Assembly (NCBI GenBank): GCA_023382175.1
Contig: JAMCQB010000063.1
Location: 133-64,132 of the forward strand
Origin: Nitrospirota bacterium
Lineage (GTDB): Bacteria; Nitrospirota; Thermodesulfovibrionia; Thermodesulfovibrionales; UBA9159
Reading direction: 5' to 3'
Length of the DNA stretch: 64,000 nucleotides
The position numbers and the translations under genes were made by a program. Every line of letters starts with the position of its first letter. Position 1 is the first letter of the stretch. Below are positions 6,610 through 63,031 of the stretch, piece after piece. The notes under the pieces were generated by a model. The model was not told the DNA's origin and ran no database searches. It saw only the letters and a list, made by a program, of their open reading frames with translations.

Positions 6610-7785
6610 GTGCTCAAAACCATCAGTGATAAAGCGCTCTCAGGGCAAAGGCTTACCCGTGAAGATGCAATCGAACTGTTCCATTCCGACGACCTATTCA
6701 CCATCGGCAGGCTTGCTGCCCATGTAGCAGAGAAGAAGAATGGGAAGAAAGCCTTTTTCGTTGTGAACCGGCACATCAACCCCACCAACATCTGCGTAAA
6801 CCGGTGCAAGTTCTGCGCCTTCAGCCGGTCAAAAGGGGAGGATGGAGCTTTTGAATTAACGATCGAGGAAATCATCAATAAGCTAAAGGACGAAACGGAG
6901 AATCGGAGAATCGGAGAAATGGAGCGACAAGGAAACAGCAACACTACTTCACCGATTCACCCAATCACCGATTCACCCAATCACCGATTCAGGGAGGTGC
7001 ACATTGTAGGAGGGCTCCATCCTGACTGGTCCTTTGAGCGCTACTGTGCGATGCTCCTTGAAATTAAGAAAACGTTTCCCTCCATTGCCATAAAGGCGTT
7101 TACTGCAGTGGAGATAGACTATTTCTCAAGGATAAGCGGGCTGGCGGTGAGAGAAGTTCTTGAGAGATTGAAAAAAAGCGGCCTTCAGGCGATGCCCGGA
7201 GGAGGAGCCGAGATATTTGCGGAAAGGGTGAGGACGAAACTCTGCCCTGAAAAGATATCAGGGGAACGGTGGCTTGAGATTCATAGAACAGCCCACCTCT
7301 GCGGAATACCGACCAATGCGACCATGCTTTACGGCCACCTGGAATCCTATGAAGACCGGGTTGACCATCTCATGAGGCTTCGTGGGCTGCAGGATCTCAC
7401 CGGAGGATTCCAGGCATTCATCCCCCTGGCATACCACCCGAGGAACACCGACATCGGCGGCTTTTACACCTCCGGCATTGATGATCTGAAGACCATTGCC
7501 ATCAGCAGGCTTTTTCTGGGTAACATTCCCCACATAAAGGCGTACTGGATCATGCTGGGGGAGAAGATCGCCCAGGTGTCACTGCTTTTCGGAGCAGACG
7601 ATCTGGACGGGACGATTGTGGAGGAGAAGATTACCCATTCCGCCGGCGCAATGACCAGTGAGGGCCTGACGAGGAAAGAACTGGTGACCCTCATAAAAAA
7701 GGCAGGGAAGGTTCCTGTGGAGAGGGACGCCTTTTATAACGCTGTCCGATTAAGAGCGAGAAAGAGAAATTGTCATTGCGAGTGA
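6610..7785 (+). CDS. mqnE: radical SAM menaquinone (futalosine pathway) enzyme, MqnE/MqnC family; aminofutalosine synthase most likely
   Basis: GTG start. The CxxxCxxC cluster motif is NICVNRCKFCAF. Family blocks PGGGAEIF, NATMLYGH, GGFQAFIPL, IKAYW and FGADDLDGT are present. The family call is firm; MqnE versus MqnC is not resolvable by eye. The gene carries an in-frame repeat insert (6895..6990), and its last codons run into a REP element. Confidence 0.8.
   Translation: MLKTISDKALSGQRLTREDAIELFHSDDLFTIGRLAAHVAEKKNGKKAFFVVNRHINPTNICVNRCKFCAFSRSKGEDGAFELTIEEIINKLKDETENRRIGEMERQGNSNTTSPIHPITDSPNHRFREVHIVGGLHPDWSFERYCAMLLEIKKTFPSIAIKAFTAVEIDYFSRISGLAVREVLERLKKSGLQAMPGGGAEIFAERVRTKLCPEKISGERWLEIHRTAHLCGIPTNATMLYGHLESYEDRVDHLMRLRGLQDLTGGFQAFIPLAYHPRNTDIGGFYTSGIDDLKTIAISRLFLGNIPHIKAYWIMLGEKIAQVSLLFGADDLDGTIVEEKITHSAGAMTSEGLTRKELVTLIKKAGKVPVERDAFYNAVRLRARKRNCHCE
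6895..6990. repeat. tandem-unit inverted repeat inserted in frame in mqnE
   Basis: Left arm GGAGAATC GGAGAATC GGAGAAAT GGAG, a 23-nt spacer, then right arm TTCACCGATTCACCCAATCACCGATTCACCCAATCACCGATTC (GAATCGG / CCGATTC complementarity). It encodes TENRRIGEMERQGNSNTTSPIHPITDSPNHRF between EEIINKLKDE and REVHIVGG. Confidence 0.75.
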
Positions 7786-19615: not shown

Positions 19616-19676
19616 ACAAGGCCAAGGTTGAGAATCCTGTCAGTCTTAACCTTAGCCTTGACCTCAATCCTTAACC
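19616..19676. repeat. tandem-unit hairpin, AAGG/CCTT type
   Basis: ACAAGGCCAAGGTTGAG ... CTTAACCTTAGCCTTGACCTCAATCCTTAACC. It resembles the element at 25663..25723. Confidence 0.5.
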
Positions 19677-19735
19677 TGATTTGTGAGATCCCGCCCTCTA
19701 TTGCACTTTCAATGTCGTATGGTATTTAATATTCT

Positions 19736-25662: not shown

Positions 25663-27328
<1,666 letters not shown>

Positions 27329-32953: not shown

Positions 32954-35656
32954 TTAATCCAGCACCCTTCTCACCTTTCTTAAAAGCTCTTTTGGTGAGA
33001 CAGGCTTCAGGATAAAATCCAATCCCTCATCGAGTATCCCCTTTTTATGGATGAGGTTCGCTGTATAGCCGCTTAGAAACAACACCTTTATGCGGGGATT
33101 GATTTTTTTGATTTCTTCATAAACCTCTTTGCCGTTCTTCTTCGGCATTATGACATCAAGGAGTAAAAGCTGAATATCCTCTTTATTGTTCATGAACTTT
33201 TTTATCGCATCCTCCCCGTCCTCCGCCGCTATTACCTTATATCCGAATCTCTCGAGCACATCCCTTGTTAATTTTCTGACTGCCTGATCATCCTCTGCTA
33301 CAAGCACTGTCTCTGTCCCTCCTCCCGTGTAGACAGCCGGCGCAGCACTCACTGCCTCCCCGGCCTCTGATTTAATCAAGGGCAGGTATATCTTAAATGT
33401 CGTGCCTTTCCCAGGTTCACTATAGACATTGATATAGCCGTCATGCTGTTTTACTATCCCGTAGACCATCGCAAGCCCAAGGCCTGTGCCCCTTCCCATC
33501 TCTTTGGTTGTGAAGAAGGGTTCAAATATCCTTTTCCTCGTCTCTTCATCCATACCAATGCCTGAATCTGTAATAGATATTAATGCGTATATTCCCGGCT
33601 CCCCATAGCCATGCATTTTCACATATTCCTCATCCATCTCTGTAATCCCCGTCTCTATGATTAATTCTCCACCATTTGGCATGGCATCCCTCGCATTGGT
33701 TGCAAGGTTCATCAATACCTGCTCTATCTGGCCCCTGTCTACTATTACTGTTAAATCCCCTACCCCCCTTTCAATTCCCCCCTTGCCAAGGGGGGACACA
33801 GAGGGGTCAAAGAGGGGCAAGGAGGGATTTAGTATTGTCTTTAATTCTATATCCTCGCCTATGATCCTCCTTAAAAATTTTCCGACGCTTCTTAATATTT
33901 CATTCAGATTTTCAGATTTTGGACTGATTATCTGTTTTCTGCTGAAGGCGAGCAGACTTTTTGTTAGATGGGCTGCCCTTTCCCCTGCACTGAGTATCTC
34001 TTTTAGATAGGCCCTATTAGGGTCGTCTCCCTTCATATCCATCTCTATGAGGTTCCCGAATCCTATTATTGCATTGAGGATGTTATTAAAGTCATGGGCA
34101 ATGCCGCCAGCGAGTATGCCAATCGCCTCCAACTTCTGGGCATGCCTCAATTGGTCTTCGAGATTCTTGCGCTCTGTGATGTCGCGAGTGATGGTCACGA
34201 AGCCTATGTGCTCCCCTTTCTCGTTTTTCAGTGAGGTAAGCGTCATTTCTGCCGGAAACCGCCTGCCATCCTTCGCAACCCTAAGGGTTTCAGCCGTTTT
34301 GACGAGTCCCTCGAAGGTCGCTTTCTTGAACCTCTCACGGCAGGCATCCTGAGCCTCGTGGGGAACGACCATAGACCATGGCTTTCCGATAACCTCCTTT
34401 GCTTGGTAGCCGAATATCATCTCTGCGCCACGGTTCCACGAGACGATGTTAGTATTCAGGTCCAGACCTACTATCGCATCGGCGGCATGCTCTGTTATGT
34501 TTGCGAGGAATGCCCGCTCCTCCTGCGACTCTGCAAGCTGCGAAGCCATTCTGTTAAATGACGAGGCAAGGTCGCCGATTTCGTCCTTTGATTCAACAGG
34601 GGCGCGGACAGAAAAATCCCCTCCAGCAAGTCCTTGCGTGGCCTTTGAAAGGGCAACCACAGGACGGGAGATTCCATGGGCGATGAGATAGGCTAAGATA
34701 GATGCAAGCAGTGCAATTGCAACGCCCAGCGCAATTACGCGCTTCCTGAGGGACTCAACAGGCGCGAAGGCCTCCCTCGTTTCGATCTCAGTGAGCAGAG
34801 TCCAGCCCCTGCCCGGGATGCACATGGAGGCGCCTATCACCTCCCTGCCGAGATAATTCCTGTAAATTCCGGAGGTTTCTCTTCCGGCGGCGCACTCAAG
34901 CACAGGCAGGGTCTCTACACGCTGCTTCATAAGCTCACTGCTGAATCGTGAAGGGGTAATCAGCAGCTTCTCCTTATTCACCAGGTAGATGTCGAGGGTT
35001 TCCCTCCTGCCCAGCGTGCCGCTTATTGCACCCTTTTCAATCTGGTACTCTCCAGAGAGCATTTTTCTCAGCTCGTCATGGTAGTAAAAATTAATGATCA
35101 CGCCAAGAGGATTGCCGGTCTTTTTATCGGTCAGCGGTGCGGCAGCAGCAATGTATGGCCTCTTTCCCTCTGTGGGGCGGGGAGGTATGTACATATCGCT
35201 TATGTAAACGCCTTTTCCCCCCTGCAGGAAATACTCGTCCTCCGATTCATCAGCGCCTATCTCGCCCTCCTCGGTTGCGGCAATCACCCTTCCTTTCATG
35301 TCCGTGACAAGAATCAGGTAGATACCCATGTCGTGGTGCATCTTGTTGTGCTTCAGGTACATGCTCAGCGCCTTTTGCAGCCCGGTATAGCGCGGGCCTT
35401 TCGGGTCTAACTTCTGCATTGCTTCAGCGCTATTGCGGATGAAGCCGTCAGAGGAAAGCTCCATCGCCCTGTCCTTCGCCATCTCGAAAAAGTGGTAGAG
35501 GACCCACTCTTTAGCTTCGGCTACGAGGGTTAAATCTTCCAATGCCTGCCTTTGCAGCGCTGCCTTAGCGGAGCTGTAGCTCAGGTAGCCGATGACGGCG
35601 ACGGGAATCAGAGCCGTCAGAAGAAATGCAAGGACGAGTTTTGGTTTAAGCTTCAT
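32954..35656 (-). CDS. hybrid sensor histidine kinase HK2 (TM, Cache-like periplasmic domain, HAMP, PAS, HisKA, HATPase, REC)
   Basis: 900 aa. The C-terminal ~500 aa are closely paralogous to HK1 (e.g. [37 protein letters not shown]). The N-terminal sensor differs from HK1. It contains a 21-codon palindromic insert. Confidence 0.9.
33753..33830. repeat. GC-rich nested palindromic element, copy B (inside the HK2 CDS, in frame)
   Basis: AAATCCC-ctaccccccTTTCAATTCCCCCCTTG-C-CAAGGGGGG-acacagaggggtcaaagaggggcaagga-GGGATTT. It encodes ..[23 protein letters not shown].., which is absent from HK1. Confidence 0.8.
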
Positions 35657-35983: not shown

Positions 35984-36691
35984 ATGATTCTCGGAGTGAA
36001 TGTTGACCATATTGCAACCATCAGGGAAGCGAGGAAAGGGGCCGAACCGGACCCGGTCATGGCAGCGACCCTTGCAATCCTTGGCGGCGCGGATGGTATT
36101 ACCGTACATCTCAGGGAAGACCGGCGCCATATAAAGGACAGGGATCTGAAACTATTGAGGGAAACAGCGCCTGTGGAACTGAATCTCGAAATGGCGGCCA
36201 CCGACGAGATGATCAGGATCGCCCTTTCGGTGAAACCTGACATGGTCACCTTTGTCCCCGAGAAACGCCAGGAACTCACCACAGAAGGGGGCCTTGATCT
36301 TGTGTCCCAGAAGACCAATATCGCCAAGGCAATAAAGAAGATCCGGGGAGCAGGGATCCCTGTGAGCCTCTTCATTAATCCTTTTGTCATGGACGTGGAT
36401 ATCGCAAAAAACATCGGCGCCGATATGGTGGAGATACATACCGGTCTTTATGCCAATGCAAAGGGCCCGAAACAGAAGGGGGAACTGCTCAGGGTGGTGG
36501 ATGCGGTGAAGGTGGCAGGTCAGAGCGGATTGAAGGCCAATGCAGGGCACGGGCTCAATTATTTCAATGTAACGGCTGTGGCAGGCATTGAGGGACTGAG
36601 AGGGCTTTACATCGGCCACAGCATTGTTTCCAGAGCGGTCCTTGTGGGCATGGAACGGGCAGTGAGGGAAATGAAGGGATTAATAAAATGA
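35984..36691 (+). CDS. pdxJ: pyridoxine 5'-phosphate synthase
   Basis: The start was moved to MILGVNVDHIATIREAR, which has AAGGAGG upstream. Family blocks are present throughout. Confidence 0.92.
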   Translation: MILGVNVDHIATIREARKGAEPDPVMAATLAILGGADGITVHLREDRRHIKDRDLKLLRETAPVELNLEMAATDEMIRIALSVKPDMVTFVPEKRQELTTEGGLDLVSQKTNIAKAIKKIRGAGIPVSLFINPFVMDVDIAKNIGADMVEIHTGLYANAKGPKQKGELLRVVDAVKVAGQSGLKANAGHGLNYFNVTAVAGIEGLRGLYIGHSIVSRAVLVGMERAVREMKGLIK

Positions 36692-36700
36692 TCTCAAGGC

Positions 36701-37133
36701 CTTGCCACAGAGGACACAGAGATCACCGAGATATTAGTGACGGATAGCTTGACGGAAAGTATTATAGCGGCATCCATTGAGGTTCATAGGGTCTTGGGAC
36801 CGAGCCTTTTGGAATCAATCTATGAAGAGGCTCTTTGTTACGAGTTATTTCTTAGAGGCATTCCGTTTGAACGTCAAAAGGAGGTTGACGTTCTTTATAA
36901 AGACAAAGTTATCAAAGGACAGAGACTTGATTTGGTGGTGAATGACGAGGTTGTAGTTGAGATAAAATCTGTGCGTAAATTAGAGGATATCTTTGTTGCT
37001 CAGGTATTATCCTATCTTAAGAGTACTGGCCTGAAACGAGCCCTGCTCATTAATTTTGGAGAAAGCAGACTTATTGATGGTCTGAAAAGAGTATCGCTTT
37101 AACTCAGTGAACTCTGTGGGCTCTGTGGCAAAG
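36701..37133 (+). mobile_element. GxxExxY gene cassette bracketed by ~30-bp CACAGAG-type inverted repeats, inserted between pdxJ and acpS
   Basis: Left arm CTTGCCACAGAGGACACAGAGATCACCGAG. The reverse complement of the right arm is CTTTGCCACAGAGCCCACAGAGTTCACTGAG. The arms start 10 nt after the pdxJ stop and end 15 nt before the acpS start. Confidence 0.55.
36737..37102 (+). CDS. GxxExxY protein (PDDEXK_3 nuclease-fold family)
   Basis: 121 aa, ..LGPSLLESIYEEALCYELFLRGIPFERQKEVDVLYKD...RLDLVVNDEVVVEIKSV..., the family signature. GTG start. Confidence 0.85.
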   Translation: MTDSLTESIIAASIEVHRVLGPSLLESIYEEALCYELFLRGIPFERQKEVDVLYKDKVIKGQRLDLVVNDEVVVEIKSVRKLEDIFVAQVLSYLKSTGLKRALLINFGESRLIDGLKRVSL

Positions 37134-37148
37134 AATTAATAAGTTATT

Positions 37149-37532
37149 ATGATTTACGGTATAGGCATAGATATCATAAAAGTCGAGAGGATGAAGGAAG
37201 CGGTGGAGAGGTGGGGGGAAAGATTCCTCCAGAGGGTCTTCACCGGGAACGAGATCTCGTACTGCTACGGAAAGAAAAATCCCTATCTTTCCCTGTCAGT
37301 GAGGTTCGCTGCAAAAGAGGCAATGATAAAGGCGCTGGGGTTGCGGGGATCCGTCACCTTCAGGGATATCGAAATTCTCAACGATGCCCATGGCAAACCC
37401 GCTATCCTGGCGCGCGGTGAACTTGATAGCGCGTTGAGGAGAAATTCCATTCGACATTCACATCTGAGCCTGAGCCATGAAAGGGATTATGGCATTGCCT
37501 TTGTGGTGCTCGAAAGGGATGACAATCCTTAG
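37149..37532 (+). CDS. acpS: holo-[acyl-carrier-protein] synthase
   Basis: 127 aa, MIYGIGIDIIKVERM...FAAKEAMIKALG...SLSHERDYGIAFVVLE. Confidence 0.9.
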   Translation: MIYGIGIDIIKVERMKEAVERWGERFLQRVFTGNEISYCYGKKNPYLSLSVRFAAKEAMIKALGLRGSVTFRDIEILNDAHGKPAILARGELDSALRRNSIRHSHLSLSHERDYGIAFVVLERDDNP

Positions 37533-37538
37533 CAGTTA

Positions 37539-38249
37539 TTATCCCTGGCCTTTCAACCGTTCCATGGCCTCTTTTGCCGCTGCGGTCTGGGCTTCCTTCT
37601 TATTCTTTCCCGTGCCGCGTCCGAACTTTTCCCCCGCGATAGAGACATCCACCGTAAAGGTCTTGCGATGTTCCTCTCCTTCCTGGCTTACGATCCGGTA
37701 CTCGGGCAACACTCCGAAACGCATCTGGCTTTCTTCCTGGAGCTCTGTCTTGAAGTTGTGGTACTGGCCCGAGGATATCACGGCGAGGATCCTCTCCCTG
37801 AGAAGGTGCAGGATTGATCTCCTCGCTGCCTCATACCCCCCGTCGAGGTAAACAGCTCCGAAAACAGCTTCCATGGCATTGGCGAGAATGGATTTCTTGG
37901 CCCTTCCCCCTGTCTCTTCCTCCCCCCTCCCCAACCATACATATCTGCCGAGGGTTATGGTCGCTGCTATCTCGGAGAGCAGAGAACCCCTCACGATATA
38001 GGATTTGATCTGCGACATCTCCGATTCAGAAAAATCTTTGTTATAGTGGAAGAGATATTCGACGACGACGAGCCCAAGAACCGAATCGCCGATGAACTCA
38101 AGCCGTTCATTATAGAAAGGCGCCCGATCAGGGTTCTCGTGGTGGTATGACCGGTGGGTCAGGGCCTCGATGAGGAGCGTCCTGTCTTTGAAGGAGTAGT
38201 TGAGCTCTTTTTCAAATGTCTCTAAATTTTTTGAAGAGGAGACAGGCAT
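37539..38249 (-). CDS. rnc: ribonuclease III
   Basis: The start was taken at [22 protein letters not shown] (38249), which overlaps the fabF 3' end by 38 nt. Signature [13 protein letters not shown] is present, with a C-terminal dsRBD. Confidence 0.9.
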
Positions 38250-39459
38250 TTGTCCCGCCAAACCCAAAGGAGTTAGAGAGCGCACATTCCACATTCCTAT
38301 ATCTCGGTTTGTGGGGAACATAATCGAGGTCACATTCCGGATCGGGATTGTCGAGGTTGATTGTGGGAGGGATTACATTATCCTGAACGCTGAGAATAGC
38401 GATCACGGTCTCTACACCTCCTGCGGCGCCGAGGAGATGTCCGGTCATGGATTTTGTGGAACTCACAGCGAGCTTATATGCGTGTTCTTTAAATACTATC
38501 TTGATGGCTGCGGTTTCCAGTTCATCGCCGTATTTTGTTGACGTCCCGTGGGCGTTGATATAATCCACCGCCTCAGGGGAAGCCCCCCCATCCTTCAGGG
38601 TCAACGCCATGCAGGATGCAGCTCCTGCGCCTTCAGGAGCCGGTGACGTGATGTGGTAAGCGTCGCTGGTCATGCCGTAGCCGGCGATCTCTGCATAGAC
38701 CTTCGCATTCCTCTTCTTCGCGTTCTCAAGGGATTCGAGAATCACGATCCCGGCCCCTTCGCCCATGACAAATCCGTCCCTGTCGCTGTCAAAGGGCCTG
38801 CTGGCGCGCTCGGGCTCTCCATTCCGGGTGGACAGGGCCTTCATTACTGCGAATCCACCGATGGCCATAGGGGTGATCACTGACTCGGCGCCTCCCGCGA
38901 TCATCACATCGGCATCACCCCTCTGGATGACCTTAAAGGCATCTCCTATGGCATGGCTTCCCGTTGCGCATGCTGTGGCTACCGCGGAATTCGGCCCCTT
39001 TGCCCCGAACTTTATGGAGACCTGCCCGGATGCGAGGTTGATGATCAGCATGGGGATAAAGAACGGGGTGATCCTCCGGTACCCTTTTTCGAGATAGGTC
39101 TTATGATAGTGCTCTATTGCGGGAAGTCCGCCCATGCCGGAGCCGATAATGACACCGACCCTCTCCGCATTCTCCGCTGTGACGGTGAGGCCTGAATCTT
39201 CCATCGCCATCGTGGAGGCAGCAACCGCGAAGTGGATGAACCGGTCCATCTTCTTCACTTCCTTGGGTTCTATATACTGGAGCGGATCAAAATCCTTTAC
39301 CTCCCCCGCAATATGGACCGGGAGGTCTGAGGAATCAAAGGTTCTGATAACACCGATCCCCGATCTCCCTTCCAGCAACGCTTCCCAGGAGGGTTTTACC
39401 CCTATCCCCAGAGGGGTGACCAGTCCTAATCCTGTGACAACGACACGACGTTTTTCCAT
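38212..39459 (-). CDS. fabF: beta-ketoacyl-ACP synthase II
   Basis: 415 aa with the active-site context [17 protein letters not shown] and GHLLGAAG. Confidence 0.93.
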
Positions 39460-43250: not shown

Positions 43251-43337
43251 AAAATGCAAAAGGCAAAATGCACAGAGAAGAATTTCGGAATTGAGGGCTT
43301 CCGTAATTCCTAAATTGCATTTTTGCTTTTTGCATTT
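43251..43337. repeat. tandem-unit hairpin (AAATGCAAAAGG arms)
   Basis: AAAATGCAAAAGGCAAAATGCA ... TGCATTTTTGCTTTTTGCATTT, with an inner GGAATT..AATTCC hairpin. It lies between icd and the CNNM gene and ends 14 nt before that gene's ATG. Confidence 0.7.
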
Positions 43338-45852: not shown

Positions 45853-45954
45853 AAACCACAGAGATCACAGAGCACACAGAGAAAGACACGAAGTCTTCGA
45901 GACAAGAAATTTATTTTGTTCTTCCTCTGCGAACTCTGCGTCCTCAGTGGTAAG
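45853..45954. repeat. gene-less CACAGAG-type inverted repeat
   Basis: AAACCACAGAGATCACAGAGCACACAGAGAAAG, 35 nt, then CTTCCTCTGCGAACTCTGCGTCCTCAGTGGTAAG. The arm type is the same as in the GxxExxY cassette. Confidence 0.7.
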
Positions 45955-62944: not shown

Positions 62945-62946
62945 AT

Positions 62947-63031
62947 AACACGTGACACGTGACACGTAACGCGTAACACGTGACAAACCGGAACGAATTC
63001 TTTATTACTTGTCACGGGTCACGCATCACGG
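62947..63031. repeat. tandem-unit hairpin (ACACGTG heptamer arms)
   Basis: ACACGTG ACACGTG ACACGTA ACGCGTA ACACGTG ACA, ~24 nt, then TGTCACGGGTCACGCATCACGG. It abuts the aroQ ATG. Confidence 0.75.

Follow-up and report, generated by a model that had tools for sequence, protein, structure and literature searches.

The stretch of DNA analysed here (the window) comprises 64,000 nt of contig JAMCQB010000063.1 in the Nitrospirota assembly GCA_023382175.1. In it the genes pdxJ and acpS are split by a 433-bp unit, the cassette, in which an open reading frame (ORF) of the GxxExxY/PDDEXK_3 family stands between two inverted arms (Table 1). This anatomy is established, and the sequence is as the first-pass annotation had described it. 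The left arm lies 9 nt past the pdxJ stop codon (TGA) and 6 nt ahead of the GTG of the ORF, while the right arm lies 1 nt past the stop codon of the ORF and 15 nt upstream of the acpS ATG. An arm consists of TTGC and, behind it, three 9-bp units in tandem, each made up of CACAGAG and two free bases; the two arms agree at 25 of 29 aligned positions, and position 4 of the heptamer and the 2-nt spacers account for all four mismatches. The arm motif TTGCCACAGAGNNCACAGAG, allowing up to three mismatches, occurred four times in the window as compared with 0.03 expected from shuffles. Two of these occurrences are the cassette arms and two belong to a doublet elsewhere, in which three CACAGAG units (45857-45881), a 43-bp loop and three inverted degenerate units (45925-45949) follow one another with no ORF between the arrays. 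The cassette is foreign in composition, with a GC content of 41.8% (only 1.7% of 433-bp windows are equally GC-poor) and a third-position GC content of 0.38 in its ORF against 0.61 for pdxJ and acpS.

Table 1. Features of the pdxJ–acpS locus and of the related doublet in the window.
Feature	Position	Strand	Description
Cassette	36701-37133		arm, ORF, inverted arm; 433 bp
Left arm	36701-36730	+	CTTGCCACAGAGGACACAGAGATCACCGAG; C-TTGC, then CACAGAG GA / CACAGAG AT / CACCGAG
Cargo gene GxxExxY	36737-37102	+	GTG start, 121 aa
Right arm	37104-37133	-	reverse complement CTTTGCCACAGAGCCCACAGAGTTCACTGAG; CTTTGC + CACAGAG CC / CACAGAG TT / CACTGAG
pdxJ, upstream flank	35984-36691	+	Pfam PdxJ, 1e-93
acpS, downstream flank	37149-37532	+	Pfam ACPS, 2e-17
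Strain-variable segment	36678-37145		468 bp; BLASTN of window against L082, L084, L085 and L089
Gene-less doublet, CACAGAG family	45853-45953		between a malate/lactate dehydrogenase gene and ndk

Membership of the ORF in the GxxExxY/PDDEXK_3 family is certain. It matched PDDEXK_3 (PF13366; 2e-38, 131.7 bits against a cut-off of 22), its only Pfam match, and TIGR04256 'GxxExxY' of NCBIfam (3e-38, 130.7 bits against a cut-off of 35), both over the full length. The family is very large, giving more than 8000 search matches. In 62 diverse members the residues G21, E26, Y29, E30, Q47, D65, E75, K77, Q89, Y93, N106, F107 and R118 were invariant, and these include the N-terminal motif G..E..Y, made up of G21, E26 and Y29, as well as the set E...D...ExK...QxxxY, which we take to be the RecB/Cas4-type nuclease motif. 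With a diverse alignment AlphaFold2 produced a model of an alpha-alpha-beta4-alpha-beta fold with a predicted local distance difference test score (pLDDT) of 93.8 and a predicted template modelling score (pTM) of 0.87; a shallow alignment gave a pLDDT of 54. The best neighbours of the model in the PDB were Cas4 SSO0001, the lambda and LHK exonucleases and Argonaute-associated Cas4-family proteins (4ic1, 3syy, 6m9k), and sequence searches of the PDB detected no solved structure. As modelled, GxxExxY would be a bare, minimal PD-(D/E)XK nuclease core with every sign of activity. It is like Cas4, lambda exonuclease and RecB in its best structural matches, in its motif set and in weak PADLOC matches to Cas4, but at only 121 aa it lacks Fe–S cluster cysteines and any CRISPR context. 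It is not a known anti-phage defence gene, since PADLOC returned nothing beyond the weak Cas4 matches (E about 2e-3), nor a known phage gene, as there was no PHROG match.

The arms are not peculiar to this locus. A scan of one genome per species gave 349 GxxExxY relatives, of which the best 80 loci were analysed, with 82 ORFs at 62–85% amino-acid identity to the window protein. An arm was scored where at least two CACAGAG units (no more than one mismatch) stood in 9-bp register, and was taken as associated with a gene within 120 bp. The hosts span more than 10 phyla and include Elusimicrobiota, Planctomycetota, Nitrospirota, Acidobacteriota, Verrucomicrobiota, Chloroflexota, Desulfobacterota, Marinimicrobia and Pseudomonadota, together with ANME-1 and ANME-2 archaea. 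An arm was found beside 80 of the 82 ORFs, two being without, and the loci contained 257 arms in 427 kb, whereas shuffled sequence contained 2. The association of gene and arm is thereby established. The first-pass annotation had staked its proposal on such a census, and on relatives not carrying the same gene without repeats; the arms do accompany other copies of the gene, and no relative with a repeat-less gene at this place came to light. Neither chance nor an assembly artefact explains the window cassette, the motif count being far above that of shuffles and an identical cassette (100%) being present in an NCBI metagenome-assembled genome (MAG) and in independent Logan and ENA assemblies.

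The layout seen in the window, with an arm on the plus strand upstream and one on the minus strand downstream, was found around 40 of the 82 ORFs. A further 23, all from Planctomycetota, showed a longer order: arm(+), GxxExxY, arm(+), second gene, arm(-). The second gene encodes a DUF5677, MUG113/T5orf172, HNH_repeat or SIR2-like protein or is unassigned, and an additional lone unit stands ~17 nt upstream of the direct arms. These two-gene cassettes, which look like passenger capture or cassette arrays, come from Pirellulales, Sedimentisphaerales and Phycisphaerae (loci L027, L037, L040-L042, L045, L046, L049, L050, L056, L059, L061-L063, L065, L066, L068, L069 and L073). In L018 and L019 the arms enclose a 33-aa C-terminal remnant of the GxxExxY gene, which is an internal-deletion intermediate in a decay series. 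With the arms kept, the homologues occupy many unrelated junctions (epimerase|EpsH, YfhO|SxtJ, radA, fabD|fabG and others); annotated distant relatives are wedged co-directionally into tight housekeeping junctions (radA|G, ade|G|manC-like, fabD|G|fabG, where G is the GxxExxY gene), and in many loci the arms abut the stop or start codons of co-directional neighbours. One Pirellulales MAG contains three GxxExxY loci, with paralogues 80–87% identical in nucleotides. Run over the analysed loci, a generic detector revealed no further cargo families associated with different units. Contigs bearing GxxExxY were often very short (many of 500–2000 bp) or ended at the arms, L339 ending 31 bp past the gene, as would follow if the arms, being high-copy repeats, interrupt assembly.

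What is conserved in the arms became apparent from 41 arm–gene–arm elements. Their consensus is an outer TT(A/T)GC (TTWGC) followed by CACAGAG units, with heptamer positions conserved in 39–41 of 41 and position 4 in 34–40 of 41. The 2-nt spacers are free, and complementarity between the arms in these positions (42 of 120) did not exceed the chance value of 35 +/- 5; compensatory base-pair evolution was not seen there. As the heptamers are invariant while the spacers are neither kept nor complementary, selection acts on the heptamer sequence and not merely on the pairing of the arms. Comparison of the window gene with close homologues gave a proportion of synonymous differences (pS) of 0.7–0.99, which is saturated, and a proportion of nonsynonymous differences (pN) of 0.11–0.25; the likeness of the proteins across phyla, at 65–85% amino-acid identity, is therefore old and has been kept by purifying selection, rather than arising from recent transfer. 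The non-coding heptamers beside the gene are conserved as tightly as the protein. A view of the element as a short-lived parasite is at odds with a module that is ancient and under strong purifying selection.

In more distant members of the family (~35–52% identity) the architecture is kept and the unit is changed. The paralogues of L013 and L020 (52% and 46% identity to the window protein) have CGCAGAG/CGCAAAG units, and the paralogue of L002 and the P0253 clade (40% and 48%) have C(A/G)CAGAC (CRCAGAC). The CACAGAG and CRCAGAC cassettes of L002 share one contig and are separated by 2 kb, each gene with its own arms. Units of TTCAC + GCGAAG accompany the Sphingomonas genes (~35–38%), CACGCGGAT that of Gemmatirosa (44%) and ACACGGATT-type repeats those of Treponema and a Fusobacterium (~37–42%), while Bacteroides finegoldii and Bernardetia (~41%) have CACAGAG-type units. 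The correspondence of unit variants and gene clades, for which the first-pass annotation had proposed a test, is thus real, though not one-to-one.

Some of these relatives are in cultured hosts. In Sphingomonas and Sphingobium (P0261-P0296) GxxExxY sits inside the fatty-acid operon, in the fabD–fabG gap, and a cassette occupies positions 1455-1920 of L201, a chromid of Sphingomonas parapaucimobilis; the system is a tractable model. The annotated GxxExxY protein of these genera has a C-terminal extension that is the translated right arm, a repeat-derived annotation artefact. P0253 occurs with CRCAGAC arms on contigs of ~4–5 kb (up to 13.7 kb; L207-L216), beside an archaeo-eukaryotic primase (AEP)-type gene and a RepB/ParB-like gene; these contigs may be small plasmids or satellites that carry the cassette.

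When the arm rather than the gene was taken as the starting point, the picture was one of a mostly non-coding repeat. The exact three-unit arm pattern was found in more than 120 stretches of JGI metagenomes, and 80 of these loci (433 kb) were analysed. They contained 116 three-unit arms, 68 of them in gene-less doublets, 32 solo and 13 at contig ends. The 43 gene-less doublets, with loops of 7–161 bp (median 35 bp), are some 20 times commoner than GxxExxY genes, of which these loci held two. In IMG/VR the pattern was present in 104 stretches, and the 80 loci analysed (L094-L173; 706 kb) contained 197 arms and no GxxExxY gene; direct searches of IMG/VR also found none. Solo arms make up about a quarter to two thirds of the arms in the two samples. 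Where an arm reading CACAGAG has a partner, this partner lies without exception to its inner side (28 versus 0), so the arrays have a defined outer end. The first-pass annotation had treated the arms as brackets of the gene: they are indeed associated with it, but are far more often gene-less than gene-bearing. By analogy, a numerous non-coding repeat with a rarer gene-bearing form is the pattern of REPINs, paired repetitive extragenic palindromic (REP) sequences, and their REP-associated tyrosine transposases (RAYTs). In IMG/VR the neighbours of the arms are often direct arrays with different units (AATCGNA, GTCAATNG, CACGAAG, TAACACGGAT); in some hairpins the two arms differ, one being of CACAGAG and the other of CACGAAG. 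Small ORFs between IMG/VR arm pairs include those for a 3D-domain protein and a weak Hjc-like protein.

The history of the window locus was approached through close relatives. An AcpS protein identical to that of the window is encoded in 15 contigs on record, and six of the ten compared had the cassette. In L081 (NCBI MAG GCA_023485285.1) and L083 the locus was 100% identical to the window. The others were not empty at the junction: L082 and L085 contain a 118-bp gene-less hairpin of different units (TCTAAATCC/AAATCCTAA), L084 an 86-bp version of it, and L089 an ORF for a DUF559 endonuclease (3e-14; Vsr-like PD-(D/E)XK) followed by CGACTAA repeats. Among more distant relatives, L091 (PdxJ 89% identical) has pdxJ and acpS 13 nt apart, confirming the adjacency that the first-pass annotation had assumed; L092 has a hairpin of TCAAGGGNT units at the junction and L093 an element of ~200 bp with GTAACNAGT units. 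With at least five different occupants across related strains and species, the pdxJ|acpS junction is a hot spot where small nuclease genes as well as palindromic elements are found, and the cassette is a horizontally acquired, strain-variable occupant of it.

Homology to the cassette-less strains ends at 36677, in the last pdxJ codons, and starts again at 37146, 3 nt short of the acpS ATG, so that the strain-variable segment exceeds the repeat-defined unit by 23 bp on the left and 12 bp on the right. In its last ~4 codons and its stop codon the pdxJ of the cassette allele is unlike that of the remaining alleles. Identity to the cassette-less strains is 99.4–99.6% in the right flank and 95.7–96.2% in the left, and this unequal divergence indicates that homologous recombination took part. 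Replacement by recombination accounts for these observations no less well than does insertion at an empty site. The discrete, clean insertion proposed by the first-pass annotation is thus borne out by presence and absence beside an identical AcpS and by the foreign third-position composition, but not by the nearest cassette-less strains, which are occupied, or by the flanks, 4% diverged on the left against 0.5% on the right. The cassette is bracketed by the two copies of an imperfect direct repeat of 13 nt (AAGGGATTAATAA/AAAGAATTAATAA; 36674-36686 and 37130-37142), the second of which overlaps the right arm. This repeat could be a duplication remnant or due to chance; taking out one copy leaves no pdxJ frame with a stop codon and no plausible empty site. 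For the doublet at 45853-45953, the contigs available for comparison all came from the same strain.

The reading that we prefer, tentatively and as falling somewhat short of an even chance, is a partnership of nuclease and repeat resembling that of RAYT and REP, acquired horizontally at a junction hot spot. Palindromic cassettes of this kind would form a very widespread family, with the 433-bp unit as one of its full-length members; in them, inverted CACAGAG arrays (9-bp period, outer TTWGC) enclose the gene for a small Cas4/RecB-like PD-(D/E)XK nuclease, and the copy between pdxJ and acpS would have come from a donor of lower GC content. Because the encoded protein is the only factor common to hosts of both domains, we propose that the arrays are its own recognition sites. 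Gene-less doublets, such as that at 45853-45953, would be non-autonomous copies acted on in trans, and by binding or cutting the arrays the protein would mobilise or maintain them. In a read-through transcript the ORF could be enclosed by an interrupted stem of ~25 bp formed by the two arms. The behaviour of the family is that of a long-lived, mostly vertically inherited resident, occasionally moved or exchanged, a mode of life also argued for REPIN/RAYT, and not that of an active insertion sequence (IS).

Several observations weigh against this partnership. Homologous recombination that imported the pdxJ side can explain the polymorphism (left flank 96%, right flank 99.5% identical), and the unrelated palindromes of sister strains at the same junction mean that the site itself may attract or generate palindromes. 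No target-site duplication was seen outside the arms, and the 41 elements showed no conserved or duplicated sequence outside TTWGC. Gene positions are orthologous within lineages, the paralogues in one MAG are only 80–87% identical in nucleotides, and two very abundant identical proteins, P0094 (174 index blocks) and P0253 (57 index blocks), each occur in one genomic context, so that there is no sign of recent transposition bursts. The small mobile or selfish unit of the first-pass annotation is accordingly not upheld, neither a target-site duplication nor identical copies in several contexts having been found, and current mobility is a matter of inference. The protein, at 121 aa, has no separate DNA-binding domain, and its structural neighbours are weak (E about 2e-3, TM score 0.5–0.63). 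Finally, 17 solitary CACAGAG heptamers in the window indicate that single copies are not avoided, and hence that a lone heptamer is no lethal target.

A different possibility is that the arms act mainly in RNA, after the manner of intervening sequences: the transcript stem would be cut by RNase III or another RNase, the cargo mRNA would be released and the operon would tolerate the insertion, while the role of the protein need not involve the arms. Folding of the cassette RNA gave paired arms in both the minimum-free-energy and the centroid structure (z = -3.4), with predicted helices of 11, 7, 4 and 3 bp split by 2x2 loops, and the doublet at 45853-45953 is predicted to form a hairpin (z = -5.1). 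No cassette promoter or terminator was found above chance, and the cassette is therefore probably transcribed by read-through from pdxJ. The abutment of arms and codons of co-directional neighbours in many loci fits such a role, as do the size and layout of the unit (433 bp, ~30-nt inverted repeats, one ~120-aa ORF), which match the intervening sequence in the 23S rRNA of Coxiella, with its 428–444 nt, 28-bp stem, single S23p ORF and excision by RNase III (PMC4990558). What a stem alone leaves unexplained is the invariance of the heptamer across phyla beside free, non-complementary spacers, and equally the partnerless solo arms. The arm that follows the gene in the 23 planctomycete two-gene cassettes, being direct and not inverted, also speaks against it, and so does the lack of strand bias of the arms relative to neighbouring ORFs, which leaves arms as sense-strand 5'-untranslated or ribosome-binding elements unsupported too. 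We therefore consider a mainly RNA-based function improbable. Given the close match to the Coxiella layout, processing of the stem is nevertheless a live possibility, and one compatible with the nuclease–repeat partnership. Known RNA families gave no match at gathering score in an Rfam search of the window, lax E-values yielding only miRNA-like hairpin noise, and the window contains no rRNA.

We give the same low weight to the proposal that the arrays are general-purpose, REP-like intergenic repeats (structural, terminator or protein-binding) that are spread by something else, with GxxExxY as a passenger or as a domesticated DNA-binding protein that uses them as operators, its own control included. 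Arms far outnumber genes and occur in viral contigs without the gene, similar arrays of other units (GGAGAATC, AAAATGC, ACACGTG, AATCGNA, GTCAATNG) abound in the window and in viral loci, and the strong long-term purifying selection on the protein would suit a host function. Were the gene a passenger, however, the same arms would not stand beside 80 of 82 copies from both domains of life and unit variants would not follow its clades, and the invariance of all catalytic residues favours an active nuclease over a mere binder. A free-standing homing endonuclease gene that cuts the cassette-less pdxJ–acpS junction and is copied in by repair, the arms being incidental, is very improbable, for although a PD-(D/E)XK nuclease gene sits here between conserved genes, varies in presence among near-identical strains, where one flank is a recombination mosaic, and has a DUF559 counterpart at the same site in L089, homologues occur at many unrelated junctions with unchanged arms, so that the conserved partner of the gene is the arm and not a host target.

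The preferred partnership of nuclease and arrays shares several features with REP/REPIN–RAYT systems (PMC3116915, PMC3337134, bioRxiv 10.1101/2021.07.10.451892): a single nuclease-type gene between inverted copies of a short palindromic repeat; far more numerous gene-less inverted doublets dispersed in intergenic DNA; and long-term vertical inheritance under purifying selection, with repeat variants tracking gene clades. The components differ. RAYT is an HUH/Y1 (IS200/IS605-like) transposase, whereas GxxExxY is a PD-(D/E)XK Cas4/RecB-like nuclease, and REP is an imperfect palindrome of 20–40 nt with a GTAG/CGTC head, whereas the GxxExxY arm is TTWGC plus two to five tandem 9-bp units. Unlike REP/RAYT, moreover, the GxxExxY gene is often present in several copies per genome, and archaea are included.

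Resemblance to the intervening sequences of 23S rRNA in Coxiella burnetii and Leptospira (PMC4990558) is also close, extending to a length of ~430 nt, a stem made by terminal inverted repeats of ~28–30 nt, a loop with a single ORF of ~120 aa, a GC content below that of the host and a patchy distribution. The statement of the first-pass annotation that GxxExxY genes occur in such intervening sequences could not be verified, the ORF documented there being that of the S23p four-helix-bundle protein (PMC4990558). The cassette, in contrast, lies between protein genes and not in an rRNA helix, has an ORF of a different family and has arms that are heptamer arrays conserved in sequence across phyla, with a stem that is here predicted only.

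Miniature inverted-repeat transposable elements (MITEs) and Correia-type elements are short, intergenic and gene-less, have terminal inverted repeats, are transcribed as hairpins and occur in many copies. The present family differs from them in that a cognate gene-bearing form exists, no target duplication is seen and the arms are internally periodic; nor were identical copies found at several sites, as an IS or MITE would lead one to expect (P0094 and P0253 being single-context). Cyanobacterial short tandemly repeated repetitive (STRR) sequences are intergenic tandem arrays of heptamer-scale units in several sequence families, but we know of no description of them as inverted pairs around a cognate nuclease gene. 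An integron cassette is not indicated, as no integrase was seen among the called genes and ORFs beside the locus (no systematic search was made) and the arms bear no known resemblance to attC. The element thus fails to display the defining features of REP/RAYT, of rRNA intervening sequences and of the classical IS/MITE families.

Searches of the literature for GxxExxY, PDDEXK_3, PF13366, TIGR04256 and the unit sequences, in full text with subscription journals and curation notes outside their reach, gave no description of function or flanks; the mentions were a superfamily catalogue entry marked 'unknown' and incidental ones. The combination of gene and repeat is a widespread and apparently undescribed family, and the finding provides GxxExxY proteins with a concrete and testable partner, arrays of a defined heptamer. 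Sphingomonas (fabD|G|fabG) and Bacteroides finegoldii offer simple cassettes in cultured hosts. A real partnership would represent a second, independent origin of the REP/RAYT-like lifestyle of a nuclease with a dispersed palindrome, reaching archaea and phage genomes, and would explain a class of repeats that breaks metagenome assemblies and adds spurious N- and C-terminal peptide extensions to annotations. The locus also shows that elements of this kind land, or are exchanged, repeatedly at operon junctions such as pdxJ|acpS.

A broader version of the same idea seems to us unlikely, though less so than either an RNA-based or a general-purpose role for the arrays. Each GxxExxY clade would recognise its own heptamer (consensus about C-R-C-R-R-A-N) and would spread or maintain doublets in trans, in phage genomes as well, forming a second, RAYT-independent REP-like system across prokaryotes. 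Other inverted arrays, with unit periods of ~6–10 nt, may be partners of further small orphan genes, DUF559 and S23p among them, which would unify rRNA intervening sequences with operon cassettes.

Several further short-unit arrays, mostly inverted pairs, occupy intergenic sites in the window (6892-6991, 43251-43337, 62946-63030, 25665-25723 and 19645-19677). Their units are GGAGAATC/GATTCACC (period 8), AAAATGC/TTGCATTT, ACACGTG/GTCACGG (period 7) and AGGTAA/CTTAAC (period 6), and several families of unit-array palindromes seem to be present in the genome, in the window without an associated gene. A G-rich array at 33788-33826 with a period of ~11 bp (GGGGACACAGAGGGGTCAAAGAGGGGCAAGGAGGG) contains one CACAGAG and lies inside a minus-strand ORF for a histidine kinase (32954-35656). 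Directly downstream of acpS is rnc, encoding RNase III (37539-38333, minus strand); next come fabF, acpP and a probable fabG of the short-chain dehydrogenase/reductase family. The pdxJ–acpS–rnc neighbourhood echoes the rnc-era-recO-pdxJ-acpS cluster of E. coli, and the closeness of rnc to a candidate RNase III substrate is probably a coincidence.

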